From Candidatus Cloacimonadales bacterium (lineage in GTDB: Bacteria > Cloacimonadota > Cloacimonadia > Cloacimonadales > JAIOQZ01), in NCBI GenBank assembly GCA_963665815.1, contig OY762463.1, forward strand, positions 2,880,001 through 2,944,000: 64,000 nt of DNA, given 5' to 3'. The notes beneath the pieces were generated by a model that was not told the DNA's origin, searched no databases, and saw nothing but the letters and a program-made list of their open reading frames with translations. The translations under genes and the position numbers were made by a program. Positions 45,152-59,884 of this stretch are shown piece by piece (the first letter of the stretch is position 1; each line of letters starts with the position of its first letter).

Positions 45152-45216
45152 AATTGACAAGTTTATCTGTATCTGCAATGATGATACATGTTTCACACGT
45201 ACAAAGAGGTAATAAA

Positions 45217-46377
45217 ATGTATAAGAAAAGAGATCTGCAAGATCATATTATAAAGGCTCTTGAGTACTTTCCTGTTGTTACCATTACAGGTCCGAGGCAA
45301 TCAGGGAAGACAACTTTTTGTCGTAAGAATTTCCCTGATTACAAATACGTCTCTTTGGAAGATCCGGATACCAGAGAATTTGCTCGAGAAGATCCTCGAG
45401 GGTTTTTAAAGCAATATCCTGACCGAACCATTATTGATGAGTTCCAGAATGTTCCCGAGCTAACTTCATATCTGCAAGGGCACATCGACGATGTTAATGA
45501 TACAGGTATGTATATTTTGACCGGATCAAACCAGTATTTAATGATGGAGAATGTGTCACAATCACTTGCAGGAAGAACTCAGATAATCAGATTATTGCCA
45601 TTTTCTTACAATGAAATACATAAAGACAGCGAAATCAGCCTGGAGCAGGTCCTGCATAAAGGGGGATATCCTCGTATATTTGAAAAGAATATTCCACCGG
45701 CTGATTTCTATTCATCCTACTTCGATACATATTTGCAGAAAGATCTTCGAAATGTACTGAAGGTTATGGATTTGAATCTTTTTCAGCGTTTTGTGACTTT
45801 GTGTGCTGCCCGTACTGCTCAAATAGTCAACCTGAGTTCCTTTTCCAATGAACTTGGCATTGACTCTAAAACTGTTAAGCGTTGGATTTCCATACTGGAG
45901 TCAGGTTATATTGTTAAACTGGTAAGTCCATATTACAAAAACTTCAACAAACGAGTTGTCAAATCTCCCAAGATGTATTTTCTGGATGTTGGACTTGCAT
46001 CCTATTTACTGGGAGTTAAAGAATCAGATCAGCTTATGAATCACCCGTTAAATGGCGAATTGTTTGAAACTTTCATTTTTTCTGAATTACAGAAACAAAT
46101 TATGCATGGGAATATGAAAGCAAACCTGTATTTCTACAGAGATAGTAACGGAAAAGAAATTGATTTTGTTATTGAGTCCGGCATGCAAACCAGACTTGTA
46201 GAAGTGAAGCTTACATCCACACCGTCTAAAGTTAATTTCAAGAATCTGATTTCGCTTCGAGAACAATTTGGTGCAAACTCGTATTCATACTTGTGCTATG
46301 GTGGCGACTTAAAGCAGACAATGTATGATACAGAGCTGGTAAGTTTCAGGAATTCCGGTTCAATTTTAACGAAGTAA
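45217..46377 (+). CDS. AAA+ ATP-binding protein (AAA_14 plus DUF4143-type, nuclease-like C-terminus)
   Basis: GPRQSGKTT, IIDEFQ, LTGS, SLAGR, GGYP, KSPKMYFLD.G and EIDFV...EVK motifs. ATG 45217 follows gagg; TTGACA at 45154. Confidence 0.9.
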   Translation: MYKKRDLQDHIIKALEYFPVVTITGPRQSGKTTFCRKNFPDYKYVSLEDPDTREFAREDPRGFLKQYPDRTIIDEFQNVPELTSYLQGHIDDVNDTGMYILTGSNQYLMMENVSQSLAGRTQIIRLLPFSYNEIHKDSEISLEQVLHKGGYPRIFEKNIPPADFYSSYFDTYLQKDLRNVLKVMDLNLFQRFVTLCAARTAQIVNLSSFSNELGIDSKTVKRWISILESGYIVKLVSPYYKNFNKRVVKSPKMYFLDVGLASYLLGVKESDQLMNHPLNGELFETFIFSELQKQIMHGNMKANLYFYRDSNGKEIDFVIESGMQTRLVEVKLTSTPSKVNFKNLISLREQFGANSYSYLCYGGDLKQTMYDTELVSFRNSGSILTK

Positions 46378-46645: not shown

Positions 46646-47425
46646 TCAATCCCATTGATCCACAAATACTACAACACCTTTTTTTATAAAGAATTGGGTG
46701 AGTATTTCTGTGAACTCATCACTGCTTTTATCTTGTTTAGACTCAAGTATTTTCTCAATTTCATCTCTGAACTCAGCATCATCAATTTTATTGAACTTGA
46801 TCTTATGATTATAATAGAGCTCGCCCAAGACTATTAAATGGTCTAAAGATAATTTTCCTGAGTTTACAAGTAAAATATCTGCACATTCCAGATTGATAAC
46901 AGCAATGTTCTTTGTTTCCCTTTTCAACAGCATAGTAATAGCTTCTTTTGAAAGTTTTCTTATTCCAGAGCAATCTCCAAGACTATGTCCATACTTTCTA
47001 ACAAAAATGGACTTATATTTATCTGAATCCAGTTTTTTAATATCAGAAAAAGATGAAAAGAACAGTTCTGAACTAAAAGCATGAGGACTGTCTTTTGCTA
47101 TTGTTAACTCCTTACTGCCATTGAAATAGAAATTATAACATGGTACTTGTTTTAGATTATCAATTTTATATACTTTTGTGGTGTATTCTCGTTTTACACT
47201 GAATTCATCCTTTATAAGATAGCTCAGCAGGTTTGTTGAAGAGTTCAACTTTCCCAGCTTACCAATACTCATTCTATCAGACCATGTCAGTGATATGAAA
47301 GCTGTGTCAGCAACATTATCTTTAGTAATAAGTTCAACTTCTGCTACAATCATTCCTGGGGCATCAGCAGTAAGATAACATATTGGTACAATTATAAACA
47401 ACATTACTATTACTGCAAGTCTCAT
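46646..47425 (-). CDS. Hypothetical exported protein
   Basis: SD aggagg; N-terminal signal/TM segment; no recognised motif. Confidence 0.55.
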   Translation of the reverse strand: MRLAVIVMLFIIVPICYLTADAPGMIVAEVELITKDNVADTAFISLTWSDRMSIGKLGKLNSSTNLLSYLIKDEFSVKREYTTKVYKIDNLKQVPCYNFYFNGSKELTIAKDSPHAFSSELFFSSFSDIKKLDSDKYKSIFVRKYGHSLGDCSGIRKLSKEAITMLLKRETKNIAVINLECADILLVNSGKLSLDHLIVLGELYYNHKIKFNKIDDAEFRDEIEKILESKQDKSSDEFTEILTQFFIKKGVVVFVDQWD

Positions 47426-48106: not shown

Positions 48107-49008
48107 TATCCCTTCAATATTTCGTCTGTGGTTTTAAAATGCAGTTTACCGATCTTCTCAAGCTCTTTTCCTGAGTGTTTACTTACAAATTGTTTACCTA
48201 ATTTGATAATGTCTGCTCCTGCTCCCGATTTCAATTCGATGTCATATTTACGGGATAGATGTTTAAGGACTTTCAGGTAATTGTATCTGGCAACAATTGA
48301 GGCCGCCGCAACAGCAATATCACGTTCGCCTTTGGTTGCAGCTCTCAGCGGGATGTTCTTCAGTTCTTTCAGACCTGATGAGATTGTATTCATGTTACTG
48401 AACTTATCGAGAAAGGCACCGTCGAATTGTCTTCTTTTTGCCAGATTGACAATCGCTCTGGCGTGCATCCACGCAAGCAGTTCATTGAGCTTTTTGCCCT
48501 GCTGAGTAAAACGGGCATATAATTCATTGTATTTTTCAGGAGTGAGAATCATAACTTCATAAGAACCACGCAGCTTGGTGGCTATAGCGCTGTTCATCTT
48601 TTCCAGAGCATCAAAGCTTTTGACTGTTTTAGAATCTCTGACTTTAATAGCAGCTAGTTGTTTTTTTACATAATCATCGCAATAAAAGGCACATACTACG
48701 AGCGGCCCGAAATAATCACCTTTTCCAGCTTCGTCAGATCCTGACCACTTTTTCCAGTCATGCAGTTTTTCTTCGGATATCGGTCCGGAAATAACAGTCT
48801 GAAGCTGTTTTTTCAGAAGGGAATCTTTCCCCTGAATAACGTATTTCGTGCCTTTTTTCTCTGTATGGTATATATTGATTTTGCAAGTGTATTCAGCCTT
48901 GGAAAGTGTAAGACTGATCCCGTAAGGAATTTCCTTTTCATCGGAAACCATAATCCCCAACTGATTGATCTTTTTAACAAATTCTGCAGTAATTTCCAGT
49001 ATCTTCAT
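48106..49008 (-). CDS. rnhC: Ribonuclease HIII
   Basis: GSDEAGKGDYFGPLVV, DSK, AVAAASIVAR and KLHFKT motifs; likely start ATG 49008. Confidence 0.9.
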   Translation of the reverse strand: MKILEITAEFVKKINQLGIMVSDEKEIPYGISLTLSKAEYTCKINIYHTEKKGTKYVIQGKDSLLKKQLQTVISGPISEEKLHDWKKWSGSDEAGKGDYFGPLVVCAFYCDDYVKKQLAAIKVRDSKTVKSFDALEKMNSAIATKLRGSYEVMILTPEKYNELYARFTQQGKKLNELLAWMHARAIVNLAKRRQFDGAFLDKFSNMNTISSGLKELKNIPLRAATKGERDIAVAAASIVARYNYLKVLKHLSRKYDIELKSGAGADIIKLGKQFVSKHSGKELEKIGKLHFKTTDEILKG

Positions 49009-49290
49009 GTTTATTCCGTTTTGAGAGATAATTGCTCTCATCAGTTTAGTATGATCATTAAAATATGTCATGTAATAAATGACAAACAATTTCTACAATA
49101 AATTGTAAATTTTCTGATATTGTTAAGGATTATCTGAAATAAAAAGGATGATTTACAGTTTTAATCATATATACTCAGAGAAAAGACAAAACAGGAATAA
49201 TATATTTAATTATATAAATAAATAAACATCATTTGACAAACAAACTCAATTTCGTAGTTTGTAAACTGCAATAATTTTGGAGAAATATTA

Positions 49291-50535
49291 ATGACGAGAA
49301 CTAAATACGTATTCATGGCAATGCTTATAGCAGCATTCGCATTCTCAGGCAGTCTTTTTGCTAATTCAATATTCGCATCAAGTGACGGAACTGAATATCC
49401 CGAAAGATTTTACGGTTACGATTCCTATTCGGCAGGTATGGGTTATACCGGAGCAGGCGACCTTTTCAGAATCAATAATTACACTGCTAATCCTGCATTA
49501 ATGACAACCAGCAGCAATGTGAATTTTTCTGCCTCAATAAAACTTGGTTATAACACTTATAAACAGGATATTAACAACCAAAGCGAATCTTACAGAGATG
49601 ACGGACTTATTTTATCTCAGTTCAGTTTTGCTTTTCCGTACAATAATAACAGATTTGGCGCTAATATTCAGGCTTTTTCCTCAGGAAACTTTGAAAATGA
49701 AGTCAAGGGTATAGTAATTGATGAAGATAATGAGTATGATCTTAAAAACAGCATTACAAGAAACATGTATCAGTTTAATCTGAATTACGCTTACAAGCTT
49801 GATAAACTCAGTCTTGGAGCATCCGTGAACTATCTACTCGGAAGTAACAATCTTGAAATGTCTCACGACCACGATTCATATATCGATACATACTATATGG
49901 ATATTCGCAGATATAACGGAGCAGCATATACTATTGGGGCAACCTATGATTTTACTAAATATTCAGCAGGTATTTCTTATAGAACAAAAGCTGATCTTTC
50001 CGGCAAAAGAGAACTGGAAACTGTTGTACATGATGATGATAACAGAATCAGTCTGAGCACAGATGATATGGAAATTGCCGACGAATTATGTCTGGGCTTT
50101 GCTGCAAAAATCAAAGATGAGTTCAAAATGACTTTCGATACTCACTTTGAAAGATGGTCAGAGATTTCCGATGATTATAATGATTCTTACATGGTTGGAT
50201 TTGGTGCGTCATACGACCCATACAAAAAGAAAGATAACTTTTTCCTGAAAATACCTGTCAGAGCAGGATACAGTCTCCGTAAACTACAGTATAAGATGAA
50301 TAATGAAGATATTATGGAACATACTTTGACAATGGGTATCAGTCTGCCAATTAAATCTACAAAGCAGGCGATTACATTTTCTGTTGAATTGATGAAGCGT
50401 GGAGATAAATCAAAACATGGAATCGAAGATAACGGTATCATGTTTACAATCGGTTCACAGGGATTTGATGTATTCAGTAGAAGAAAGAACAAAACCGGGC
50501 ATAGAGATATTCCAAAGCCTGATTCAAATTATTAG
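49291..50535 (+). CDS. Outer-membrane beta-barrel, FadL/OmpP1/PorV-like
   Basis: Signal peptide; GMG-x-x-G...NPA hatch motif; amphipathic strands. Confidence 0.65.
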   Translation: MTRTKYVFMAMLIAAFAFSGSLFANSIFASSDGTEYPERFYGYDSYSAGMGYTGAGDLFRINNYTANPALMTTSSNVNFSASIKLGYNTYKQDINNQSESYRDDGLILSQFSFAFPYNNNRFGANIQAFSSGNFENEVKGIVIDEDNEYDLKNSITRNMYQFNLNYAYKLDKLSLGASVNYLLGSNNLEMSHDHDSYIDTYYMDIRRYNGAAYTIGATYDFTKYSAGISYRTKADLSGKRELETVVHDDDNRISLSTDDMEIADELCLGFAAKIKDEFKMTFDTHFERWSEISDDYNDSYMVGFGASYDPYKKKDNFFLKIPVRAGYSLRKLQYKMNNEDIMEHTLTMGISLPIKSTKQAITFSVELMKRGDKSKHGIEDNGIMFTIGSQGFDVFSRRKNKTGHRDIPKPDSNY

Positions 50536-50558
50536 ATAATAAATTTTAAAGAGGGTCT

Positions 50559-50726
50559 ATGAAAATAGATAAAGAACTATGTGATGTCTGTAGTACATGT
50601 GCTGCAGCATGTCCTGTTGATGCAATAACAATCAGCGAATTCGATGTAAAAATAGATGAAGAAAAATGTGTGCATTGCGGTAATTGTATTATCAGCTGTC
50701 CGATCAGTGCGATTTCGGAGGAATAA
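50559..50726 (+). CDS. 2[4Fe-4S] ferredoxin, 55 aa (absent from the ORF track)
   Basis: MKIDKELCDVCSTCAAACPVDAITISEFDVKIDEEKCVHCGNCIISCPISAISEE; two CxxCxxCxxxCP motifs; SD gaggg; its stop overlaps the next ATG (TAATG). Confidence 0.95.
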   Translation: MKIDKELCDVCSTCAAACPVDAITISEFDVKIDEEKCVHCGNCIISCPISAISEE

Positions 50727-51907
50727 TGTTTTATGATGTAGTCGTGGTTGGTGCCGGCCCGGCAGGAGCAGTAGCAGCCTGGTATGCAGCGAAAAGCGGA
50801 GCTTCCGTTCTGCTTCTTGAGAGAGACAGAGAACCAGGAATTCCTGTAAGATGTGCCGAAGGTGCTTCTCAGGCAGGAGTTCATGAATTTCTCGACCCTG
50901 ATCCACGCTGGGTTTCCGCAAAGACCAATACACTTAGAATTATATCTCCTGATGGAAACCATGCTGATCTTAATCACTTGAGAGATGCTTACATTCTTGA
51001 GAGAAGAGTTTTTGATAAAACCTTATGCGATAAAGCGTGCAATGCCGGAGCAAAACTTCTTGTCAAAGCTGATGCTGTAAGGCTTTACAAAGAAAATGAC
51101 GTTGTAAAAGGTGTTGTTTTCAGGCATCTTGGAGAAGAGAAAACTGTCCGTTGTAATATCGTTATAGGAGCAGACGGCATCGAATCAAAAGTCGGCCGTT
51201 GGGCAGGAATCAGAACCGAACTGAAGGTTGAAGATCTGGAACCTACAGCTCAATATACACTTACAGGAATCAAAGTTGATTCAACTGTCAGTCAGTTTTT
51301 TGTAGGTGCTAAATACGCTCCGGGGGGTTATGCCTGGATTTTCCCGAAATCCGAGACCTCCGCTAATGTTGGACTGGGAATTGCAACACAGATGGCAGAA
51401 GGGAAAAACGCTAAATACTATCTTGATAAATTTGTAGATGATGTATTCCCGGATGCATCGAGAAACTATCTTGTTCTCGGCAGTGTACCTACTTCCGGAA
51501 CACTTCCGCAGATCACAACTGACAATGTTATGCTTGTAGGGGATGCAGCCCGTCAGGTTGATCCGCTTACGGGTGCAGGAATTCTCAACGGTATGTTTGC
51601 AGCTAAAATTGCCGGAACTATTGCCGGTGATGCTTTAAAGAAGAAAGACTTCTCAAACAAATTCCTGAAGAAATATCAGAAGCAATGGCATAATGATCTT
51701 GGTAAAAGACTGGCTATTCTTCATGAGTTGAAAGAAACTTATTTCGGATTTTCGGAAGAACGCTTCAATAATATTGTTAAGAGTCTGAATAAAATGCCGT
51801 CATCAGATATCGATGTTAAGAAACTGTTTGTAACAGCAGTAAAGGATGATCCGAAACTTGTACTACAAGTAAGTAAAGCATTTCTCATAGGAAATTTTAT
51901 AAAGTAA
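50726..51907 (+). CDS. Geranylgeranyl reductase family FAD oxidoreductase (digeranylgeranylglycerophospholipid reductase-like)
   Basis: YDVVVVGAGPAG, PVRCAEG, GADG, APGGYAWIFPK (PxxYxWxFP) and GDAARQVDPLTGAGI motifs; start ATG 50726 follows ggagg. Confidence 0.88.
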   Translation: MFYDVVVVGAGPAGAVAAWYAAKSGASVLLLERDREPGIPVRCAEGASQAGVHEFLDPDPRWVSAKTNTLRIISPDGNHADLNHLRDAYILERRVFDKTLCDKACNAGAKLLVKADAVRLYKENDVVKGVVFRHLGEEKTVRCNIVIGADGIESKVGRWAGIRTELKVEDLEPTAQYTLTGIKVDSTVSQFFVGAKYAPGGYAWIFPKSETSANVGLGIATQMAEGKNAKYYLDKFVDDVFPDASRNYLVLGSVPTSGTLPQITTDNVMLVGDAARQVDPLTGAGILNGMFAAKIAGTIAGDALKKKDFSNKFLKKYQKQWHNDLGKRLAILHELKETYFGFSEERFNNIVKSLNKMPSSDIDVKKLFVTAVKDDPKLVLQVSKAFLIGNFIK

Positions 51908-52498
51908 ATGAAAAAGAAATACAGAACGGAAATTTACAGGAAGCTGATTCACATCAGCTCTCTTGCTATCCCGATGTCTTTCCGTTTCATTGTTAGTAGA
52001 ACCACTATGCTTCGCGTACTGATTCCATTAACGCTTATTGTATTTGCAATAGAAATAATCAGATTAGAGAATAAGTCACTCAAACGTATATTTTACAGTC
52101 TTTTCGGCATTATGCTGAGGCGTCATGAAATAAATAATTACACAGGTGCATCTTATCTGATGGTATCGGCTATTTTCTGTATATCATTTTTCCCGGCAGA
52201 TATAGCATTCCTGGCATTATCATCTCTGGCAATTGGAGATACTTTTGCCGCTATCATAGGTATGATGTACGGGAAAAGAAAGATCCGCGGATCGAAGAAA
52301 AGCCTGGAAGGATCACTGGCATGCTTTGTAACAACATGTGCTTATGCTCTGTTGTTCGGAGCCCATCCGTTGATTGCTATTGTTGGAGGTATATCCACGA
52401 CAATAGCTGAAACTTCGTCAATCCCGATTGATGACAATATAAAAATCCCAATAATATCAGCAGTGGCTATGACAGCGGCTCAGCTGTTTATCTTTTAA
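51908..52498 (+). CDS. CTP-dependent polyprenol/phytol/dolichol kinase family membrane protein (SEC59/VTE5/DGK1-like)
   Basis: RKLIH, GDTFAAIIG, KKSLEGS and DDN motifs; multiple TM segments. Confidence 0.85.
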   Translation: MKKKYRTEIYRKLIHISSLAIPMSFRFIVSRTTMLRVLIPLTLIVFAIEIIRLENKSLKRIFYSLFGIMLRRHEINNYTGASYLMVSAIFCISFFPADIAFLALSSLAIGDTFAAIIGMMYGKRKIRGSKKSLEGSLACFVTTCAYALLFGAHPLIAIVGGISTTIAETSSIPIDDNIKIPIISAVAMTAAQLFIF

Positions 52499-52507
52499 GA
52501 GGTTTAA

Positions 52508-53449
52508 ATGTTATTATCATTTGTAATCCCTGTTTTTAATGAAGAAGAATCCCTGAACACTCTGTACTCGGAGATAATCGAGAACGCAAAAGCTTATGAT
52601 TACGAGATCATATTTATTGATGATGGTAGTACCGACAAAAGTTTTGATGTTATGAGCAGTCTTGCAGATAAAGACTTGAATGTAAAGATTGTCAGATTCA
52701 GAAAAAACTTTGGTAAGGCTACAGGTCTGAATGTCGGATTCGAACATGCTCAGGGTGATATAGTATTCACAATGGATGCAGATCTTCAGGATGACCCGAA
52801 GGAAATACCGAGATTCATAGAAAAAATGAATGAAGGCTATGATCTTGTTTCGGGTTGGAAAGAAAACAGAAAAGATCCTATTCATAAGACTCTGCCTTCA
52901 AAGCTGTTTAACAAAGTAACCTCAAAAACATTTAATGTTAATCTGCATGATCATAACTGTGGATTCAAAGCATACAAAAAAGAAGTTATTCAGGAACTGG
53001 ATATCTATGGAGAACTACACAGATTTGTTCCTCCTCTGGCGGGAGCAAAAGGATTTAAAATAACTGAAATCCCTGTGCATCATCGTAAGAGAGAATTCGG
53101 TAAATCCAAATATGGGTCAAAGAGACTTCTCAGAGGTTTTCTCGATCTTCTTACAGTCAAGCTGGTGACGCACTATAACCAGAGCCCTCTGTACTTATTC
53201 GGTAGAACCGGTACGATGTTTTTCAGTATTGGATTTCTGATAAATCTTTATCTGACTATCATGAAATTTGGTTTTGGACAGCCACTGGCAAACAGACCTT
53301 TGTTATGGTTAGGCATCCTTTTGATTATGGTAGGAATTCAGTTTTTCTCTATCGGATTGATTGGTGAGTTAATAGTGAATCAGAACAGACATCGGAATAA
53401 ACGTACAACATATTCTATAAAAGAAAAAGTAAATATTGAAAAGGAGTAA
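52508..53449 (+). CDS. GT2 polyprenyl-phosphate glycosyltransferase (DPM1/ArnC/GtrB-like)
   Basis: IPVFNEEE, DDGSTD, RKNFGK, MDADLQDDP and GKSKY motifs; two C-terminal TM helices. Confidence 0.9.
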   Translation: MLLSFVIPVFNEEESLNTLYSEIIENAKAYDYEIIFIDDGSTDKSFDVMSSLADKDLNVKIVRFRKNFGKATGLNVGFEHAQGDIVFTMDADLQDDPKEIPRFIEKMNEGYDLVSGWKENRKDPIHKTLPSKLFNKVTSKTFNVNLHDHNCGFKAYKKEVIQELDIYGELHRFVPPLAGAKGFKITEIPVHHRKREFGKSKYGSKRLLRGFLDLLTVKLVTHYNQSPLYLFGRTGTMFFSIGFLINLYLTIMKFGFGQPLANRPLLWLGILLIMVGIQFFSIGLIGELIVNQNRHRNKRTTYSIKEKVNIEKE

Positions 53450-53453
53450 ATCC

Positions 53454-55166
53454 ATGAGTAATAAAGAAGTTATAAATAAAATCCCACGTAAATACTACGC
53501 AGAAGATATCAATATCACGGAATGGGAAAAAGTAGAGCCATTATATAATGAGCTCCTCGAGATGGAAGTTAACTCAGCAGATGACCTTGTAGCAATGATG
53601 GAAAAATACAGTGAGCTGGAATTTATCCTCATGAACGAAATGGCATGGCGTTATGTTCGCATGACCTGCTACGCCGATGACAAAGAAAAAGAAGAAGCAT
53701 TCAATGATTTCTACGGAAATATTGTTTCTCCTGCAATGAACTACGACTTCAAACTCAAAAAGAAATACTATGAAAGTCCATATAAAAAAGAGTTATCCGA
53801 TGAAAGATATTCTCACCTGAATAAAATTATTTCCAAAGATATTGAGATGTTCAGAGAAGAAAATATATCTCTGATGACCGAAGAACGTAAACTGGCAAAT
53901 AACTACGGATCAATTCTTGGTGGAATGACTGCCGAATATAAAGGTGAAGAAAAAACCATGACTCAGCTTGCTGTGTTTATGAAAGATCCGGACAGATCAG
54001 TCAGAGAAGAAACCTGGAAACTCAGATTCGGTAAGCTTCTTGAAAACAGCAAAAAACTGGATGATCTCTTTAATGAGCTGATGAAGATTCGTAACAAAAT
54101 TGCGGCTAATACTGGGTTTGATAACTATAGAGATTATGAACATAAGAATAAAGGTAGGTTCTCGTATACTCCTGAAGATGTAATGGAATTCCATAAATCT
54201 GTTGAAGAATACGTTGTTCCTTTCATGAAAGAAAAAAACGAAGAAAGAAAACGGAAGCTCGGTGTTGAAAAACTTGAACCATGGGATACAAGTGTTGATC
54301 TTGACGGAAAAATTTTAAAACCGTTCAAAGATACAGATGAGCTCATTGCTCTGTCACAGAATGTTCTCGGAAAAGTTAAACCTGAATTCGGTAAACAGCT
54401 TGAGTTAATGAACAACACAGGACTGCTTGACCTTGCTAACAGAAAAGGCAAAGCTCCGGGTGGATATAACTATCCGCTTCCTGAACTGGGATCATCATTT
54501 ATATTTATGAACTCAGTAGGGCTGCAGTCTGATGTAAGTACTTTACTTCACGAAATGGGACATGCTCTCCATGCAAAAGCTGTTACTGACGAACCTCTGG
54601 CGATATATTCAGAACCACCTAGTGAAGTAGCTGAACTTGCTTCCATGTCTATGGAGCTTCTTTCTATGGATTACTGGGATGAGTATTATGACAATGCCGA
54701 GGATCTGAAGAAAGCTAAACGTGAGCAGCTTGAAGGTACTCTTATGTTCCTGCCATGGTGTATGGTTGTGGATGCTTTCCAGCAATGGATTTACACATCA
54801 GGTGAACACACAAACGAAGAAAGAGCAGAATACTTCAGTAATTTGATGGATCGTTTCGGACTTGGTGAATATTGGGCGAACTATTCAGAAGAGAAGAAGA
54901 ATCGCTGGATGTTCCAGCTTCATATCTTCGAAGTACCTTTCTATTATATTGAATACGGTATTGCTCAACTCGGTGCTCTCAGTATTTACAAGAACTACAA
55001 AGAAAATCCGGGGAAAGCAGTTAAAGACTATGAAGCATTCCTGAAATTGGGTTACTCAAAATCCATGAAAGAAATATATGAGACAGGTGGAATTGATTTC
55101 AGTTTCTCAGCTGATCATATTAAGAAAATTGTAGCTTTTGTAAAAGAAGAACTGCAAAACCTGTAA
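53454..55166 (+). CDS. pepF: Oligoendopeptidase F (M3B)
   Basis: RKGKAPGGY, HEMGH, EVAELASM and PFYYIEY motifs; ATG 53454 follows aggag. Confidence 0.88.
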   Translation: MSNKEVINKIPRKYYAEDINITEWEKVEPLYNELLEMEVNSADDLVAMMEKYSELEFILMNEMAWRYVRMTCYADDKEKEEAFNDFYGNIVSPAMNYDFKLKKKYYESPYKKELSDERYSHLNKIISKDIEMFREENISLMTEERKLANNYGSILGGMTAEYKGEEKTMTQLAVFMKDPDRSVREETWKLRFGKLLENSKKLDDLFNELMKIRNKIAANTGFDNYRDYEHKNKGRFSYTPEDVMEFHKSVEEYVVPFMKEKNEERKRKLGVEKLEPWDTSVDLDGKILKPFKDTDELIALSQNVLGKVKPEFGKQLELMNNTGLLDLANRKGKAPGGYNYPLPELGSSFIFMNSVGLQSDVSTLLHEMGHALHAKAVTDEPLAIYSEPPSEVAELASMSMELLSMDYWDEYYDNAEDLKKAKREQLEGTLMFLPWCMVVDAFQQWIYTSGEHTNEERAEYFSNLMDRFGLGEYWANYSEEKKNRWMFQLHIFEVPFYYIEYGIAQLGALSIYKNYKENPGKAVKDYEAFLKLGYSKSMKEIYETGGIDFSFSADHIKKIVAFVKEELQNL

Positions 55167-55177
55167 AAAGATGTCTA

Positions 55178-56536
55178 ATGGATGCTGATAATATATTTTC
55201 GGTTTCTGAAATAAATTTTCACGTCAAAAACGTACTGGAGAACTCACTTTCCAGAATGTATATTGAAGGTGAAGTAGCAAACTTTACAGCTCATCACTCA
55301 GGACACTTTTACTTCTCCCTGAAGGATGAGCTGTCCTCTATTCGCTGTGTATTTTTTAAATCTGCCAATAAAGGACTGGCTTTTACTCCCAAAACAGGAG
55401 ACAAGGTCATTTGTACCGGAAACATTACTGTTTATGTAAAAAACGGAAGTTATCAACTACAGGTTGCAAATATGTATCCCGCAGGGAAAGGTCTGTTGCA
55501 GATTAAGTTTGAAGAACTGAAAGCAAAGCTGGCAGAGGAAGGCTTGTTTGAGCCTGAGCATAAAAAGGAAATACCGGAGTTTCCGCGTAAAATCGGACTG
55601 GTGACATCTCCTGACGGAGCAGCAGTAAAAGACGTTATATCTGTGAGTGAGCGTAGGTTCCCGGTTGATCTTGTTGTATATCCGGCTCTGATGCAGGGAG
55701 ATAAAGCCTCTGAGACAATTGTAAAAGGTATAGAGTACTTTAATTCATGCGATGATATCGACCTGATAATTGTAACACGTGGGGGAGGATCTCAGGAAGA
55801 TCTGTTTGTTTTTAATGACGAACGTATTGCCAGAGCTGTTTATAAATCCAAAATACCTCTGATTTCTGCTATAGGGCATGAGATAGATTTTACCATCTGT
55901 GATTTTGTTGCTGATCTGCGAGCTCCAACACCCTCATCTGCAGCTGAAATAGCCGTTCCGAATAAAGAAAACGTGATTGCGGATTTGATGATGAAATATT
56001 CCCGTATACTTTCTTTATTCAGGAGTAAGCTGGATTTCTCTGAGAAACAGTTAATGAGATTTAAACTCAGACTTGCAGATAGACACCCTAAAAACGTTCT
56101 CAGGCAAAACAGACAGGAAATGGAAAAGCTTAGTTTGAGACTGTTGAGCAGTAAAAATCAAGTGCAGGACATGAGAAATTCTGTATCTTATGAGAACGAT
56201 AAACTCCGTAAATATTTGAATAAGTTCCGAATAGATTTGTTGAACAGGCAGAATCAAGTTATGCAGAAGTTCAGAAGTTTGAAAAGCAGTTCAGATAAAT
56301 GGCTCATGAATAGAAGTGACGATCTGAGAAGCAGAAAGGAAGATTTGCGGGAGCTGTCTCCATATAATGCTCTCAAGCGTGGATATGCTGTCCTGAAAAA
56401 GGAACGTAAAATACTTAAGTCTGTAAAACAGATGGAAAAGGGCATGGCGTTCCAGATTGTACTGAATGACGGGATAGCTGAATGTGAATGCATAGATATT
56501 GTCGGTAAGTCAGAAGATAGAGATAATTTCATGTAA
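55178..56536 (+). CDS. xseA: Exodeoxyribonuclease VII large subunit
   Basis: GEVANF...SGHFYFSLKD, RGGGS, SAIGHEID and APTPS motifs. Confidence 0.95.
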   Translation: MDADNIFSVSEINFHVKNVLENSLSRMYIEGEVANFTAHHSGHFYFSLKDELSSIRCVFFKSANKGLAFTPKTGDKVICTGNITVYVKNGSYQLQVANMYPAGKGLLQIKFEELKAKLAEEGLFEPEHKKEIPEFPRKIGLVTSPDGAAVKDVISVSERRFPVDLVVYPALMQGDKASETIVKGIEYFNSCDDIDLIIVTRGGGSQEDLFVFNDERIARAVYKSKIPLISAIGHEIDFTICDFVADLRAPTPSSAAEIAVPNKENVIADLMMKYSRILSLFRSKLDFSEKQLMRFKLRLADRHPKNVLRQNRQEMEKLSLRLLSSKNQVQDMRNSVSYENDKLRKYLNKFRIDLLNRQNQVMQKFRSLKSSSDKWLMNRSDDLRSRKEDLRELSPYNALKRGYAVLKKERKILKSVKQMEKGMAFQIVLNDGIAECECIDIVGKSEDRDNFM

Positions 56537-56676
56537 TTAATAAACATCTGTGACGTTCTGAAAAAAGAAAGTAATCTTAATTGTTGACATTATGCAGTAA
56601 AAGATTTCTATAAGGTGTCATGGTAGTTGTTTTTCAACAACTTGCATGTAAATGACTGAATTGAAATGAGGTTCCA

Positions 56677-58539
56677 ATGCTGGAAAAGATAAAGAAACCA
56701 AGAGATATACGAAAACTGGGATTCAAAGAACTTATTTTGCTTGCTGAAGATGTGAGACAACGAATTATTGAAGTAACAGCCCAAAACGGGGGACATCTTG
56801 CTCCTAGTTTGGGAGCAACGGATATTGCAATTGCCTTGCTGAAAGTATTTGATCCGGTTACACATAGAATCGTCTGGGATGTGGGACATCAGTCTTATGC
56901 CTGGAAGATACTGACTGAAAGAAACGAACGCTTTGATACTCTCAGACAATTTGGTGGAATAAGCGGATTTAACAACATATTCGAGAGCAAATACGATGCA
57001 TTCAGTGTTGGGCACTCCAGTACATCCATTTCGGCTGCTCTTGGGATAAATGTTGCTGATGAGCTTCAGGGAATTAACCATAGAACTATCGCTGTTATCG
57101 GTGACGGAGCTTTGACAGGGGGGATATCTTTCGAAGCAATAAATAATGCAGGTGGAATGCAGAAGAATTTGATTGTTATCTTGAATGACAATGAGATGTC
57201 CATTTCAAAAAATGTGGGAGCATTGCAGAATTATCTTACGAATGTGCTCGTGAGTAAATCCTACAATTCTCTTAAAGACAAAGTCTGGAATTTATCTCAG
57301 GCACTACCTACAGCGATCAAAAGAAAATTTATTACCGGAGCACAAAAGTTAGAGGAATCTCTGATAAATATCCTTGTACCGAATATTATTTTCGAAGATC
57401 TCGGATTCAAGTATGTTGGTCCAATAGATGGACATGATATTCCGAGAATGGTTAGAATTTTGAACAAAGTACACCATAATGTGATTGGTCCCGTGTTTAT
57501 TCATATGCTTACCCAGAAAGGAAAAGGCTGTCACTTTGCTGAAGATAACTCGCAGAAATTCCACGGAGTCGGACCTTATGAGAGAAAAACCGGCGTAACC
57601 AAGATGAAACCTACTTCTTATTCCGGTGCATTCGGGAAAAAACTTTGTGAGTTGGCAAAAACAAACAAAAAAGTTGTTGCTGTTACTGCTGCCATGACCG
57701 ATGGAACGGGACTGACTGACTTTGCTAAAAAATTCCCTAAACGTTTTTTTGACGTAGGTATAGCAGAACAACATGCCGTGACTTTTGCCGGAGGTATGGC
57801 TGTCAGGGGAATTAAACCGTTCGTTGCTATATATTCGACATTTATCCAGAGAGCTTTCGATCAGGTTGTGCACGATATAGCTATGCAGAAATTACCTGTA
57901 GTGATATGCCTCGACAGAGCCGGATTGGTTGGAGAAGACGGAGCAACCCATCAGGGTGTATTCGATCTTTCCTTCCTCAAGACCGTTCCTGAACTTATTA
58001 TTATGGCACCATCCTGCAGGCAGGAACTGGAGCAGATGCTTGATTTTGCTGCCGAGTATCAAGATGGACCAATTATCATTAGATATCCTCGTGGAACTGC
58101 CAGAATGTGTGAGAGAGAACTCCCGTCAGTGGAATCTTATAAATCAGAAGTAATCCGAGAAGGTAAGAAGATTGCAGTGTTCTCAATCGGTAAAGCTCTG
58201 GAGGATGCAGAGAATATTTGCGATCTGATAGAAAAAGAAACCGGTAATAAAGCGGGGCTGGTGAATCTACGATTCCTGAAACCTCTTGATAAGGAAACAC
58301 TCGATACAATTGCCAAAAACTACGATTATGTTGTAACGCTTGAGGATAATGCCCTTATCGGTGGAATGGGCGAATCTGTAAAAGCCTACTATTGTAATTC
58401 CGATGTAAAAGTATATAGTTATGGTATCCCGGATTTCTTTGTTGAACACGGAGCTGTAAAAGTACTTAAAGAACACCTTAACCTGACACCTGAACAGGTT
58501 TGGGAAGATCTGAAGACAGTTATTGCAGAAGAGTTCTGA
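56677..58539 (+). CDS. dxs: 1-deoxy-D-xylulose-5-phosphate synthase
   Basis: GGHLAPSLG, WDVGHQSY, GDGA..G...EA.NN, GIAEQHAV and GEDGATH motifs. Confidence 0.97.
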   Translation: MLEKIKKPRDIRKLGFKELILLAEDVRQRIIEVTAQNGGHLAPSLGATDIAIALLKVFDPVTHRIVWDVGHQSYAWKILTERNERFDTLRQFGGISGFNNIFESKYDAFSVGHSSTSISAALGINVADELQGINHRTIAVIGDGALTGGISFEAINNAGGMQKNLIVILNDNEMSISKNVGALQNYLTNVLVSKSYNSLKDKVWNLSQALPTAIKRKFITGAQKLEESLINILVPNIIFEDLGFKYVGPIDGHDIPRMVRILNKVHHNVIGPVFIHMLTQKGKGCHFAEDNSQKFHGVGPYERKTGVTKMKPTSYSGAFGKKLCELAKTNKKVVAVTAAMTDGTGLTDFAKKFPKRFFDVGIAEQHAVTFAGGMAVRGIKPFVAIYSTFIQRAFDQVVHDIAMQKLPVVICLDRAGLVGEDGATHQGVFDLSFLKTVPELIIMAPSCRQELEQMLDFAAEYQDGPIIIRYPRGTARMCERELPSVESYKSEVIREGKKIAVFSIGKALEDAENICDLIEKETGNKAGLVNLRFLKPLDKETLDTIAKNYDYVVTLEDNALIGGMGESVKAYYCNSDVKVYSYGIPDFFVEHGAVKVLKEHLNLTPEQVWEDLKTVIAEEF

Positions 58540-58540
58540 A

Positions 58541-59884
58541 ATGAATTCTAATGATACAATAGCCGCAATATCAACTCCTTCCGGAAACGGTGCAATATCT
58601 GTAATAAGAATCAGTGGTCCGGATTCATTCGAGACTGTTCAATCTATATTCAGCTCGAAACTGCCCGAACCAGGTACAATTAAGTATGGAAAAATTACAG
58701 ATGATTCAAGAGTGATTGATGATGTTGTAGTAACCTGTTTCAAATCTCCTGCAAGTTACACAGGAGAGGATATTGTTGAGATTTCCTGTCATGGAAATCA
58801 GTTTATTGCTAGGCAGATTCTGGAAGTACTCCTGATAAAAGTCAGAATTGCAGAACCCGGAGAATTTACTCAGAGAGCATTTCTGAATGGGAAAATGGAT
58901 TTAACACAGGCAGAGGCTGTTGGTGATCTGCTTATGGCTAAAACAAGGATTTCTCAGATGGCAGCTCTTGATCAATTGCATGGTGTTCTGCATAAGAAAA
59001 TCAGCAAAATCCATAAAAAAATGACTGATACAAGAATTCTGCTTGAACTGGAGATAGATTTTTCGGAGCAAGAATTACCGGATATAGATGTAGAATCTGT
59101 AGTTACTGACTTGGCTGATGTTAAAGCGAAGCTTGAGAATCTTGCAGAGTCAGGAGATGCCGGATTAATAATCAGAGATGGATTTCGTATCAGTTTTGCC
59201 GGAATGCCTAATGTTGGTAAATCAAGTCTTTTCAATGCCTTTCTGGAAACAGAAAGAGCAATTGTTACACCGGTACCGGGTACAACAAGAGATTATATAG
59301 AAGAAGCTGTTTCCATTGAAGGATATCTGGTCAGATTTTTTGATACTGCAGGGCTAAGGGATTCTGATGATCACATTGAATTAATGGGAATGGAAAGATC
59401 CCGAAAAATGATAGATGAGTCACATTGTATATTTGCAGTTTATGATGCATCAAATGTTCTGACAGGAAGTGAGTGCCAGGAGACATTTGAAGGGCTGAAT
59501 AAACCTGTAATAAAAATTGCGAATAAATCAGATTTGATATCTGAAGAACAAAAACATTTATTGAATGAAAAGAATTATATAGTTTGTTCAGCAGTAACCA
59601 AAGAAGGTTTTAAGTTACTGGAAGAAACAATAATAGATTTAATTAACACCGGTGCGGCAGAAATTCATGACGGTATGTTGACGAATACAAGGCAGATTTC
59701 TGCTTGCAGAAGAGCTGTTAATGGAGTGGATAGGAGCATAACAGCACTTGAATCCGGTTTGGGATTTGAGTTTGCTGCATTTGATTTAAAAGAGGCGTGT
59801 CAGGCACTTGAGGAAATAACGGGTGCAGTTTCAACAGATGATCTTCTTAATAGAATTTTCTCGAATTTTTGTATAGGTAAATAG
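58541..59884 (+). CDS. mnmE: tRNA modification GTPase MnmE
   Basis: DTIAAISTP, GMPNVGKSS, GTTRD, DTAG and NKSD motifs; C-terminal FCIGK. Confidence 0.97.
   Translation: MNSNDTIAAISTPSGNGAISVIRISGPDSFETVQSIFSSKLPEPGTIKYGKITDDSRVIDDVVVTCFKSPASYTGEDIVEISCHGNQFIARQILEVLLIKVRIAEPGEFTQRAFLNGKMDLTQAEAVGDLLMAKTRISQMAALDQLHGVLHKKISKIHKKMTDTRILLELEIDFSEQELPDIDVESVVTDLADVKAKLENLAESGDAGLIIRDGFRISFAGMPNVGKSSLFNAFLETERAIVTPVPGTTRDYIEEAVSIEGYLVRFFDTAGLRDSDDHIELMGMERSRKMIDESHCIFAVYDASNVLTGSECQETFEGLNKPVIKIANKSDLISEEQKHLLNEKNYIVCSAVTKEGFKLLEETIIDLINTGAAEIHDGMLTNTRQISACRRAVNGVDRSITALESGLGFEFAAFDLKEACQALEEITGAVSTDDLLNRIFSNFCIGK

Follow-up and report, generated by a model that had tools for sequence, protein, structure and literature searches.

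Five genes in the window, the 64,000-nucleotide stretch of Cloacimonadales DNA analysed here, form a run at positions 49291–53449, all on the + strand, and look like three neighbouring units rather than one demonstrated pathway. We give an approximately even chance to a composite in which a BamG-type outer-membrane protein, a ferredoxin and geranylgeranyl reductase (GGR) for ether lipids, and a kinase and GT2 glycosyltransferase for a sugar carrier stand side by side in a phylum-wide syntenic block.

Gene content, family and fold assignments, synteny and co-occurrence are what the analysis shows, whereas all substrates, the path of the electrons, the sugar and the consumer of the sugar donor are what we infer. 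The barrel would be a FadL-fold accessory subunit, of the BamG type, in the machine that inserts proteins into the outer membrane. Electrons would pass from the ferredoxin to the FAD-dependent, archaeal-type GGR, whose main task would be to saturate the geranylgeranyl chains of archaeal-type ether lipids, built by a GGGP synthase and a GGPP-synthase/UbiA (DGGGP-synthase-like) pair encoded elsewhere in the genome; GGR may additionally reduce the carrier lipid. The kinase would phosphorylate a free, undecaprenol-like polyprenol with CTP, and GT2 would glycosylate the resulting polyprenyl phosphate with a hexose, glucose being the probable sugar and UDP-glucose its source. A periplasmic GT-C enzyme, for instance a TMEM260-like protein, may use this lipid-linked sugar as its donor.

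Genes of the run, with dxs further downstream (positions in the window)
Feature	Position	Strand	Description
OMP	49291–50535	+	414 aa, FadL-fold outer-membrane beta-barrel, signal peptide
Ferredoxin	50559–50726	+	55 aa, 2x[4Fe-4S], two CxxCxxCxxxCP motifs
GGR	50726–51907	+	393 aa from ATG, archaeal-type FAD-dependent geranylgeranyl (prenyl) reductase
Kinase-like	51908–52498	+	196 aa, polytopic membrane protein, CTP-transferase superfamily
GT2	52508–53449	+	313 aa, ArnC/GtrB/DPM1-type polyprenyl-phosphate glycosyltransferase, two C-terminal hydrophobic segments
dxs	56677–58539		

The gene run and its barrel protein

The five co-oriented genes and their spacing are confirmed as given in the initial annotation: 23 nt separate the barrel gene from the ferredoxin gene, the ferredoxin and GGR genes overlap by 1 nt at a TAATG junction, the GGR and kinase genes abut (0 nt), and 9 nt lie between the kinase and GT2 genes. 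The dxs gene, previously placed about 3 kb downstream, was found 3.2 kb beyond GT2 and scores 746 bits with TIGR00204 (cut-off 466). Since the tight co-oriented run extends past GT2 into genes for an M3 peptidase, xseA, dxs and mnmE, short gaps are not a marker of one pathway here. The gene order is kept among relatives: in a sample of 80 related loci, 74 of which were assessable, the ferredoxin and GGR genes stand immediately 5′ of the kinase gene in 56 of the 74 (the tblastn distance from GGR to kinase has a median of 17 nt), and a GT2 gene stands immediately 3′ of the kinase gene, no more than 400 nt away, in 71, an arrangement that exceeds chance.

The barrel protein is best read, from its sequence and its modelled structure, as a BamG-type subunit of an FCB-style BAM complex, separate from the lipid genes. 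It matches the NCBIfam BamG model NF053685 with an E-value of 3.7e-41 and 141.5 bits, under the cut-off of 250, and is the top BamG match of the whole genome (141.4 bits; runners-up, 47.4 and 44.4), while no Pfam family was matched even at E ≤ 10. The best three Foldseek matches of its AF2 model (pLDDT 86) are the Bacteroidota BAM-complex chains 9n2d_B, 9hiv_F and 9hjm_F, taken as BamG from entry titles and chain lengths; the match to 9n2d_B has an E-value of 9.8e-21 and TM scores of 0.78/0.83, and FadL and TbuX rank below the BAM chains (E about 1e-14, TM 0.5–0.6). The earlier label "FadL-like" is right for the fold; the best sequence and structure matches are to BamG. The accessible part of PMC12611786 describes BamG as an essential, FadL-like protein with conservation across six of the seven other FCB phyla. 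A recJ-like gene (TIGR00644, E 3.4e-97) is present in 47 of 55 related loci, and in every locus read or mapped it stands between the barrel gene and the next gene.

The reductase and ether-lipid synthesis

The ferredoxin, recognized by Fer4 (E 3.6e-16) and Fer4_10 (E 3.4e-13), is presumed to be the electron donor of GGR. Their coupling, already noted at the TAATG junction, recurs among relatives: every one of the 56 loci where GGR is adjacent also holds a ferredoxin, and a natural fusion of the two exists (P0103, 468 aa). GGR exceeds the cut-off of TIGR02032 (229.5 bits versus 158.8) and aligns over residues 3–380 with PDB 3oz2 (E 6.2e-63); its best equivalog model, the Thermoplasmatales DGGGPL reductase, gives 245 bits versus a cut-off of 780. 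The translation contains GxGxxG and VGDAARQVDPLTGAGI besides the two motifs reported before, PVRCAEG and PGGYAWIFP (PxxYxWxFP). Profile and structure-sequence matches also bear out the families previously assigned to the ferredoxin, GGR and the polyprenyl-phosphate GT2.

A search for the ether-lipid synthases, which the initial annotation had proposed, found in the same genome a GGGP synthase (GGGPS; TIGR01769, 201 bits versus a cut-off of 161.55) and, immediately following a polyprenyl synthase gene, the only UbiA gene, which is DGGGPS-like; the latter two genes form the GGPP-synthase/UbiA pair. Among 151 genomes of the phylum (GGR threshold E ≤ 1e-40, lists compared by eye), GGR occurs in 75, GGGPS in 66 and both in 64, a co-occurrence that is statistically weak because the independent losses behind it are few, perhaps four. 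In all 64 double-positive genomes GGR is 47–100% identical to the protein described here, and copies of at least 47% identity are confined to GGGPS-positive genomes (64 of 66). The only GGGPS-positive genomes without GGR are G036 and G102, the latter consisting of 440 contigs; the families f2 (GGR in 2 of 68) and f12 (0 of 6) are without both. GGGPS and DGGGPS activities of Cloacimonetes have been verified and Euryarchaeota-like GGRs noted, according to the available text of Villanueva et al. 2021 (PMC7852524), so the presence of archaeal-like GGRs in Cloacimonadota is already known.

Eleven genomes (f5, f6 and genus g26 of f2) that are without GGGPS at the thresholds used hold an intact GGR of 31–41% identity; ten of them are also without UbiA, the exception being G128 of f5 with its weak UbiA match. 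Five regions were fetched from this group, and in each of them GGR lies within the same block: the divergent gene is immediately 5′ of the kinase gene in G024, G068, G133 and G128, and immediately 5′ of GT2 in G050, a genome without the kinase. Three aligned GGRs from GGGPS-less genomes keep PVRCAEG, APGGYxWxFPK and VGDAARxxNxxxGGGI. Such intact, motif-bearing reductases indicate that GGR has some role where ether-lipid synthases are missing. The residence of divergent GGRs in the block of GGGPS-less genomes also speaks against a clean split of the units.

The kinase–GT2 pair and alternative readings

The kinase-like protein is most likely a CTP-dependent lipid (polyprenol) kinase of the SEC59/VTE5/DGK1 type. 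This earlier assignment is favoured by motif comparison and by the source names of relatives ("SEC59/DGK1/VTE5 family", "dolichol kinase", "phosphatidate cytidylyltransferase"), although the match to Pfam PF01148 (E 0.0018, 18.6 bits) is under the cut-off of 24. The motif GDT..AA..G..G.RK....KS.EGS is invariant, D111 of GDT being kept in 28 of 28 sequences, and the signature KR..KD..PGHGG..DRFD of the genome's own CdsA is absent from the protein. The folds closest to its AF2 model (pLDDT 93) are CdsA 4q2e (Z 8.8) and CarS 5guf (Z 8.0, rmsd 2.8 Å over 95 residues); the fold does not separate kinase from cytidylyltransferase.

GT2 matches Pfam Glycos_transf_2 (E 6.8e-36) and, over its full length (residues 3–303), ArnC 9hwj (E 3.6e-54), as well as GtrB 5ekp (E 3e-33) and Dol-P-Man synthase 5mlz (E 1.8e-22). 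UDP-glucose as its sugar source is suggested by relatives, in which a UDPGP-family gene lies 3′ of GT2 (28 of 61 loci). In this phylum the SEC59/VTE5-like kinase and the ArnC/GtrB-like GT2 are found together almost everywhere; the kinase is present in 140 of 151 genomes, including all 68 of f2 and all six of f12, and 17 of 74 loci have the pair but no GGR. Of the five genomes behind five GGR-less loci, four have no archaeal-type GGR anywhere and one has nothing closer than a 28% paralog. Ferredoxin–GGR and kinase–GT2 are split, in the order to which f13 belongs, by 2–4.4 kb of genes recognized by eye as thiamine biosynthesis genes. A TMEM260-like GT-C protein, tied to the kinase–GT2 pair by co-presence only, occurs in 148 of 151 genomes, and a search of the present genome for a PMT_2 GT-C gave no match.

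The initial annotation had read the genes as one operon that reduces, phosphorylates and glycosylates an isoprenoid alcohol. In such a scheme, ferredoxin and GGR would saturate a polyprenol or polyprenyl phosphate at one or several of its isoprene units, the kinase would (re)phosphorylate it and GT2 would form a partly saturated polyprenyl-phosphate-hexose resembling a dolichol derivative; ether lipids might be saturated by this GGR as well. As an obligatory pathway this is not supported, since 72 of the 74 f2 and f12 genomes sampled have kinase and GT2 but no GGR, and saturation is therefore dispensable for their function. A well-conserved GGR without GGGPS occurs in no lineage, thiamine genes are interposed between the pairs in one order, and, because the block also holds unrelated genes (BamG-like, recJ), position alone is weak evidence. 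Moreover, no GGR-family enzyme is known to carry out the alpha-saturation defining dolichol. In favour of the scheme, GGR abuts the kinase gene here and precedes it closely in most relatives, and in three lineages that have neither GGGPS nor a DGGGPS-like UbiA, ferredoxin and an intact GGR with its catalytic motifs are retained at the same position, beside the kinase (G024, G068, G133) or GT2 (G050). In Haloferax, saturated dolichol phosphates disappear together with the saturated diether lipids when GGR is deleted, according to the available portion of PMC10821996. Overall, we regard the single-pathway or dual-use scheme as a tentative second reading, and a saturated polyprenyl-phosphate-sugar carrier, to which the eleven GGGPS-less genomes with intact GGR (in the block in five regions) point, as possible, if somewhat doubtful.

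It is unlikely that the kinase is instead a DGK1-like, CTP-dependent diacylglycerol kinase replacing a missing DgkA, with GT2 a mere neighbour. The complete genome yielded no DAGK_prokar (DgkA) gene, and yeast DGK1, a member of the same superfamily, has the same conserved Asp (PMC2459266, accessible part), invariant here as D111; but the adjacency of GT2 and of UDPGP genes in relatives suits a carrier-lipid role better, as do other members of the kinase family fused to HpnI-like lipid glycosyltransferases. A CarS-like CTP:archaetidate cytidylyltransferase would fit the size and fold of the kinase-like protein, and CarS was not detected in Cloacimonetes MAGs according to the available text of PMC7852524; however, the protein occurs in 74 of 74 sampled f2 and f12 genomes, all without GGGPS, and with the CdsA signature absent we consider this highly improbable. 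Just as improbable is the salvage route proposed earlier, in which the barrel imports phytol, phytanyl or archaeol lipids that are then reduced, phosphorylated and reused. The FadL fold and the 23-nt distance to the ferredoxin gene would suit it, but the barrel is nearer to BamG chains than to FadL transporters (E 1e-20 versus 1e-14; TM 0.78 versus about 0.6) and no other protein of the genome is a good BamG candidate, recJ separates the barrel gene from the lipid genes in the relatives read or mapped, and the genome has no VTE6/DUF92 second kinase for the diphosphate step.

Comparison with known systems

With BamG of the Bacteroidota BAM complex (PDB 9n2d, 9hiv, 9hjm), its best sequence-family and structure match, the barrel has in common the FadL-type architecture of about 400 aa, but it reaches only 141 bits versus the cut-off of 250. 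The kinase-like protein shares the CTP-transferase superfamily fold and the conserved Asp motif with SEC59/DOLK, VTE5 and yeast DGK1, from which it differs as part of a clade of short (196 aa) bacterial proteins barely seen by PF01148; to our knowledge, no member of this clade has been characterised. ArnC, GtrB (sll0501) and Dol-P-Man synthase, like GT2, combine a GT-A domain with a C-terminal membrane region and align with it nearly end to end, whereas the scores of GT2 stay under the equivalog cut-offs (ArnC, 207.7 versus 529; PgfS, 179 versus 500).

The ether-lipid pathway described for Cloacimonetes, members of the same phylum, likewise comprises GGGPS, a DGGGPS-like UbiA, a polyprenyl synthase, MEP genes and Euryarchaeota-like GGRs; the ferredoxin partner, the kinase and GT2 neighbours and GGR in GGGPS-less lineages are not mentioned in the available text of PMC7852524, where the words "kinase" and "dolichol" each occur 0 times. 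The FAD fold, the catalytic Cys motif and YxWxFP are common to GGR and the Thermoplasma acidophilum enzyme (PDB 3oz2). In Methanosarcina acetivorans, too, a small 2[4Fe-4S] ferredoxin gene adjoins the GGR gene, and the Methanosarcina enzyme depends on the ferredoxin encoded in its own locus (PMC10821996, accessible part). In contrast to the archaeal systems, the host is a bacterium, GGR scores far under the NCBIfam equivalog cut-offs (245 versus 780; 171 versus 580), and the ferredoxin gene is located upstream and translationally coupled. The Haloferax volcanii enzyme, finally, is a precedent for one archaeal GGR saturating both membrane lipids and a glycan carrier.

Gene run and outer-membrane barrel

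The five open reading frames recognized in the initial annotation, coding for an outer-membrane barrel, a ferredoxin, an archaeal-type geranylgeranyl reductase (GGR), a 196-aa SEC59/VTE5/DGK1-like candidate lipid kinase (the kinase-like protein) and a GT2 glycosyltransferase, were borne out at the positions in the Table, as were the junctions between them (23 nt, a TAATG overlap, 0 nt and 9 nt) and the GGR motifs PVRCAEG and PGGYAWIFP. The window comes from a complete genome of 3.96 Mb on a single contig (the own genome, G000). Past GT2, the same-strand, tightly spaced run goes on with genes for an M3 oligoendopeptidase (TIGR02289, E 4e-182), xseA, dxs and mnmE, so that close spacing in this region is not enough to delimit a pathway. 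The dxs gene (TIGR00204, 746 bits) is indeed situated 3.2 kb downstream, but as one among unrelated housekeeping genes rather than as a partner of the cluster. Scanning positions 48900–56800 for promoters and terminators yielded 21 promoter-like and 5 terminator-like sites, no excess over shuffled sequences (24.4 and 3.8). Upstream of queH/rnhC, the window also holds a 407-aa ORF with the P-loop motif GPRQSGKTT and a 259-aa ORF with a hydrophobic N-terminus.

Table. Positions of genes and open reading frames in the window, elsewhere in the own genome (G000) and in related loci (L numbers)
Feature	Location	Position	Strand
407-aa ORF	window	45154-46377	+
259-aa ORF	window	46646-47425	-
Outer-membrane barrel	window	49291-50535	+
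Ferredoxin	window	50559-50726	+
GGR	window	50726-51907	+
Kinase-like protein	window	51908-52498	+
GT2 glycosyltransferase	window	52508-53449	+
M3 oligoendopeptidase, xseA, dxs, mnmE	window	53454-59884	+
Second GGR-family gene	L002, 1492-2631	G000:C1:2825117-2825980	
Eukaryote-type UDPGP	L116	G000:C1:3182542-3183750	
TMEM260-like/DUF2723 GT-C	own genome, outside window	G000:C1:143616-144113	
RecJ-like gene	L012	4072-5613	
RecJ-like gene	L089	5388-6962	

The barrel had been described as FadL-like and as a possible entrance for salvaged lipids. Against Pfam it gave no family match even at E ≤ 10, FadL/TodX included. The NCBIfam model of BamG (NF053685) recognized it with E 3.7e-41 and 141.5 bits, under the equivalog cut-off of 250, and in a BamG search of the own genome the barrel was by far the top match, the runners-up scoring 47.4 and 44.4 bits. 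Its AlphaFold model, built on 31 Cloacimonadota homologues (pLDDT 86.1), has the 14-strand barrel fold. The three highest-ranking structures, 9n2d_B, 9hiv_F and 9hjm_F, stem from three Bacteroidota BAM complexes (E 1e-20 to 2e-18, TM 0.75–0.83; for 9n2d_B, E 9.8e-21 and TM 0.78/0.83), and these chains were taken as BamG from the entry titles and chain lengths (390–406 aa); FadL, TbuX and TodX ranked below them (E 1e-14 to 1e-12, TM 0.5–0.63). According to PMC12611786, BamG is a FadL-like subunit in the outer membrane, BAM function depends on it, and it is conserved in six of the seven other FCB phyla. The barrel is best read as a BamG-type protein, its predicted structure being nearest to BamG among the FadL-fold barrels. 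The FadL-like fold is retained, but a role in import or salvage is the less likely reading, since BamG is the better match in both sequence and structure; a BamG at this place would remove the false lead towards lipid import and would extend the Bacteroidota-type BAM to Cloacimonadota.

Reductase, kinase-like protein and glycosyltransferase

The 55-aa protein encoded before GGR is a 2x[4Fe-4S] ferredoxin, and a natural ferredoxin-GGR fusion of 468 aa (P0103) occurs among the relatives. GGR exceeds the curated cut-off of TIGR02032 (229.5 versus 158.8 bits) and aligns over residues 3–380 to Thermoplasma GGR (3oz2, E 6.2e-63); the FAD-binding GxGxxG, the catalytic Cys (RCxEG), YxWxFP and the GD motif were all present in the alignments to 3oz2 and within alignment A3. 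The nearest model is the Thermoplasmatales DGGGPL reductase, with a score well under its equivalog cut-off, and all three archaeal DGGGPL reductase equivalogs compared, NF041160, NF041080 and NF041385, were missed (245.2/780, 171.1/580 and 116/700 bits/cut-off, respectively). As stated in the accessible portion of PMC10821996, the Methanosarcina GGR depends on a ferredoxin encoded in its own locus, and when the Haloferax GGR was deleted, dolichol phosphates and diether lipids were both lost in their saturated form. Euryarchaeota-like GGRs are already known from Cloacimonetes MAGs, for which the available sections of PMC7852524 also give verified activities of the ether-lipid synthases GGGPS and DGGGPS; Cloacimonadota and Cloacimonetes both appear as source names on the protein relatives. 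Within the partial texts covered, the literature search returned no paper in which the GGR of Cloacimonadota is tied to a ferredoxin or to the kinase-GT2 pair, and GGR is not mentioned in the available part of PMC11868695. The own genome has a second GGR-family gene (L002), some 55 kb ahead of the window, of the ChlP/BchP-like bacterial type (TIGR02032, 215.5 bits), which stands alone without an adjoining ferredoxin gene and the product of which is devoid of PVRCAEG at the aligned position.

The kinase-like protein scored 18.6 bits (E 0.0018) against PF01148, under the gathering cut-off of 24; some of its relatives carry a precomputed match to this family. As far as named, these relatives all belong to the same phylum, their source names being "SEC59/DGK1/VTE5 family protein", "dolichol kinase" and "phosphatidate cytidylyltransferase". 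An alignment of 28 sequences revealed an invariant E..RK..H in the N-terminal part, a central GDT.AA..G...G.RK.....KS.EGS and a C-terminal E...DN...P; D111 of the GDT motif, which corresponds to the conserved CTP-transferase Asp (D177 in DGK1), is invariant (28/28) and aligns with the D..A...G motif of CdsA (4q2g). The C-terminal DDN..P presumably reflects a likeness to dolichol and phytol kinases. VIA-align placed the model (pLDDT 93) about equally close to CdsA (4q2e, Z 8.8) and CarS (5guf, Z 8.0), CdsA was the sole match of the alignment in a PDB profile search (E 0.008), and Foldseek against the PDB gave no match at E ≤ 0.001, the best being CdsA with E 0.16. These fold matches place the superfamily and leave kinase and cytidylyltransferase activity undistinguished; a search for a solved SEC59/VTE5/DGK1-family kinase for comparison found none. 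The canonical CdsA of the own genome, encoded next to uppS, carries the signature KR..KD..PGHGG..DRFD, which the kinase-like protein lacks. A role as CarS analogue was set aside as unlikely in view of distribution and motifs. When 1.84 billion representatives were searched with a profile, 7607 relatives came up at E ≤ 0.001, of which 265 had E ≤ 1e-30. The matches listed include distant members with a fused HpnI-like (GT21) lipid glycosyltransferase (P0341, P0360, P0342) and one fused to the dephospho-CoA kinase CoaE (P0322).

The catalytic domain of GT2 matches PF00535 with 124.2 bits (cut-off 23.3). Residues 3–303 of 313 align to residues 10–309 of ArnC (9hwj, E 3.6e-54) and residues 3–302 to residues 28–324 of GtrB (E 3e-33), and owing to this near end-to-end alignment the C-terminal membrane part of ArnC/GtrB is covered as well. 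Archaeal Dol-P-Man synthase was matched over almost the full length (E 1.8e-22), and the cut-offs of the ArnC equivalog NF007986 (207.7 bits versus 529) and of PgfS were missed.

Gene order and distribution in the phylum

Relatives of the kinase-like protein were confirmed in 437 instances in species-representative genomes, and the best 80 loci of the 437 were kept, among them one of the same genus (L010, 96–97% identity). The window proteins and a RecJ-like protein were mapped onto these loci by tblastn (E ≤ 1e-5, coverage at least 40%). Where at least 1100 nt were available downstream of the kinase gene (74 of these best 80 loci), GT2 started within 400 nt in 71 and at 1857 nt in one, and was not found in two. 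GGR ended within 400 nt upstream of the kinase gene in 56 of the 74 loci with at least 1500 nt on that side, at 641 nt in one, and was absent from 17; each of the 56 adjacent GGR genes (56/56) was accompanied by a ferredoxin match. With at least 4300 nt upstream (55 of the best 80 loci), the barrel was present in 52 and the RecJ-like gene in 47 loci. The prevailing orders were barrel-recJ-Fd-GGR-kinase-GT2 (32/55, Fd denoting the ferredoxin) and barrel-recJ-kinase-GT2 (13/55); the window's own order without recJ, barrel-Fd-GGR-kinase-GT2, occurred in 4/55, and other or incomplete orders in 6/55. Most Cloacimonadota thus carry a gene for a RecJ-like DHH exonuclease (assigned by TIGR00644, E 3.4e-97, under the model cut-off) directly after the BamG-like barrel and before Fd-GGR or the kinase gene, as exemplified by L012 and L089, a place at which the window has no recJ. 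Five genomes with GGR-less loci were searched, four of which had no archaeal-type GGR and one a 28% paralog only. By eye, thiamine biosynthesis genes fill the 2–4.4 kb between Fd-GGR and kinase-GT2 in family f13, from the other order of the class, and in the small genomes of family f12 the kinase-GT2 pair is located between secA-like and adk-like ORFs. GGRs of two MAGs labelled Armatimonadota (L019, L025) are almost identical to those of L017 and L033, which bear the label Cloacimonadota; their end branches in the GGR tree measure about 0.03. This is probably due to a binning or labelling error.

Among 151 genomes of the phylum with a completeness of at least 85%, the kinase was found in 140, the UbiA family in 78, GGR (E ≤ 1e-40) in 75 and GGGPS (PF01884) in 66. 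Compared by eye, GGR and GGGPS occurred together in 64 genomes, the GGRs of which share 47–100% identity with the window GGR (two being partial at contig ends); two genomes had GGGPS only (G036, G102), 11 GGR only and 74 neither. Family f2 has GGR in 2/68 and the kinase in 68/68 genomes, and f12 in 0/6 and 6/6, respectively. This distribution speaks for kinase-GT2 as a separate unit and for an association of the well-conserved GGR with the ether-lipid synthases. In the own genome, GGGPS clears the TIGR01769 equivalog cut-off (201 versus 161.55), the sole UbiA gene is located directly behind a polyprenyl synthase gene, and UppP/BacA is present.

Of the 11 GGR-only genomes, two are from f5 (G024, G128), seven from f6 and two from genus g26 of f2 (G068, G133). 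They encode GGRs with 31–41% identity to the window GGR and without internal stops. Repeating the GGGPS search at E ≤ 0.01 in G024, G068 and G133, as well as in the genomes to which L060 and L080 belong, did not retrieve the gene, and UbiA was found in 0/9 genomes of f6, in 0/2 of g26 and not in G024, G128 giving a weak match. The respective blocks read barrel-recJ-Fd-GGR-kinase-GT2 in G024, barrel-recJ-GGR-kinase-GT2 without a ferredoxin match in G068 and G133, Fd-GGR-kinase-GT2 on a 6-kb contig of G128, and barrel-recJ-Fd-GGR-GT2 in G050, a genome without any kinase match. Three aligned GGRs of GGGPS-less genomes retain PVRCAEG, APGGYxWxFPK and the GD/GGGI motif. A quick tree, which gives neither root nor order of events, separated the GGGPS-less GGRs, in two groups on long branches, from every GGR associated with GGGPS, subject to long-branch warnings; its outgroup was a single, very long paralog (L090), and L002 was dropped by the coverage filter (at least 330 residues).

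When ORFs of 150 aa or more are considered, the one nearest to GT2 on its downstream side belongs to one shared cluster in 28 of 61 loci (among the best 80 of 437), two scanned members of which are UDPGP-family proteins (PF01704, E 3e-141 and 2e-133); in another 13 of the 61 it codes for an FtsX/MacB-type permease. The eukaryote-type UDPGP gene of the own genome (PF01704, E 1.6e-133) is about 250 kb away, and 0/14 control genomes had a UDPGP match. A TMEM260-like/DUF2723 GT-C, an open frame of about 800–1000 aa, is found in the own genome and in 148/151 phylum genomes, usually as a single copy. Human TMEM260 uses Dol-P-Man as substrate. The TMEM260-like GT-C, linked to GT2 by co-presence only, might be the enzyme that consumes a polyprenyl-phosphate sugar.

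Alternative readings and comparison with known lipid pathways

The saturated-isoprenoid reading proposed for the five genes is partly supported, and the run is best read as three neighbouring units: a BamG-type barrel, an Fd-GGR pair for ether-lipid saturation, and a polyprenol kinase paired with a hexosyltransferase that acts on polyprenyl phosphate. We give this arrangement, for which we infer the substrates, an even chance. Alternatively, GGR might serve a bacterial dolichol-like carrier, as its single or as one of two uses, which seems possible but doubtful. Cloacimonadota would then run a dolichol-like cycle in the archaeal and eukaryotic style, with the ferredoxin-driven GGR partly saturating a polyprenyl carrier, a CTP-dependent SEC59/VTE5-like kinase recharging it, and an ALG5/GtrB-like GT2, fed in many relatives by the eukaryote-type UDPGP enzyme, making saturated polyprenyl-phosphate-glucose for the TMEM260-like GT-C; the retention of GGR in lineages without GGGP/DGGGP synthases would be a trace of the carrier role. 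An intact GGR beside carrier-lipid genes after loss of the ether-lipid synthases suggests a second, GGGPS-independent substrate, for which the polyprenyl carrier is the obvious candidate, with the dual use in Haloferax as precedent. For a role of GGR on DGGGP-type lipids speaks its co-occurrence with GGGPS, in 64 of the 66 GGGPS-positive genomes.

Should the kinase-like protein phosphorylate DAG instead, it would resemble DGK1, in which the conserved Asp of the CTP-transferase domain (D177) has a role according to the available part of PMC2459266. This DAG-kinase reading shares the remaining probability with two minor rivals. Family searches of the complete own genome found neither DgkA nor VTE6/DUF92 nor a PMT_2 GT-C. 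Substrates are established for very few members of the dolichol/phytol-kinase superfamily (PMC9782597), of which the kinase-GT2 pair represents an uncharacterised bacterial branch, present in almost the whole phylum.

No other bacteria with working archaeal-type ether-lipid synthases are as well documented as the Cloacimonadota, which lend themselves to testing the "lipid divide". If Fd-GGR provides the saturation step, the ether-lipid pathway would be complete and its likely electron donor named. If GGR also acts on a glycan carrier, these bacteria would possess a saturated dolichol-like carrier, a trait thought to be typical of archaea and eukaryotes.
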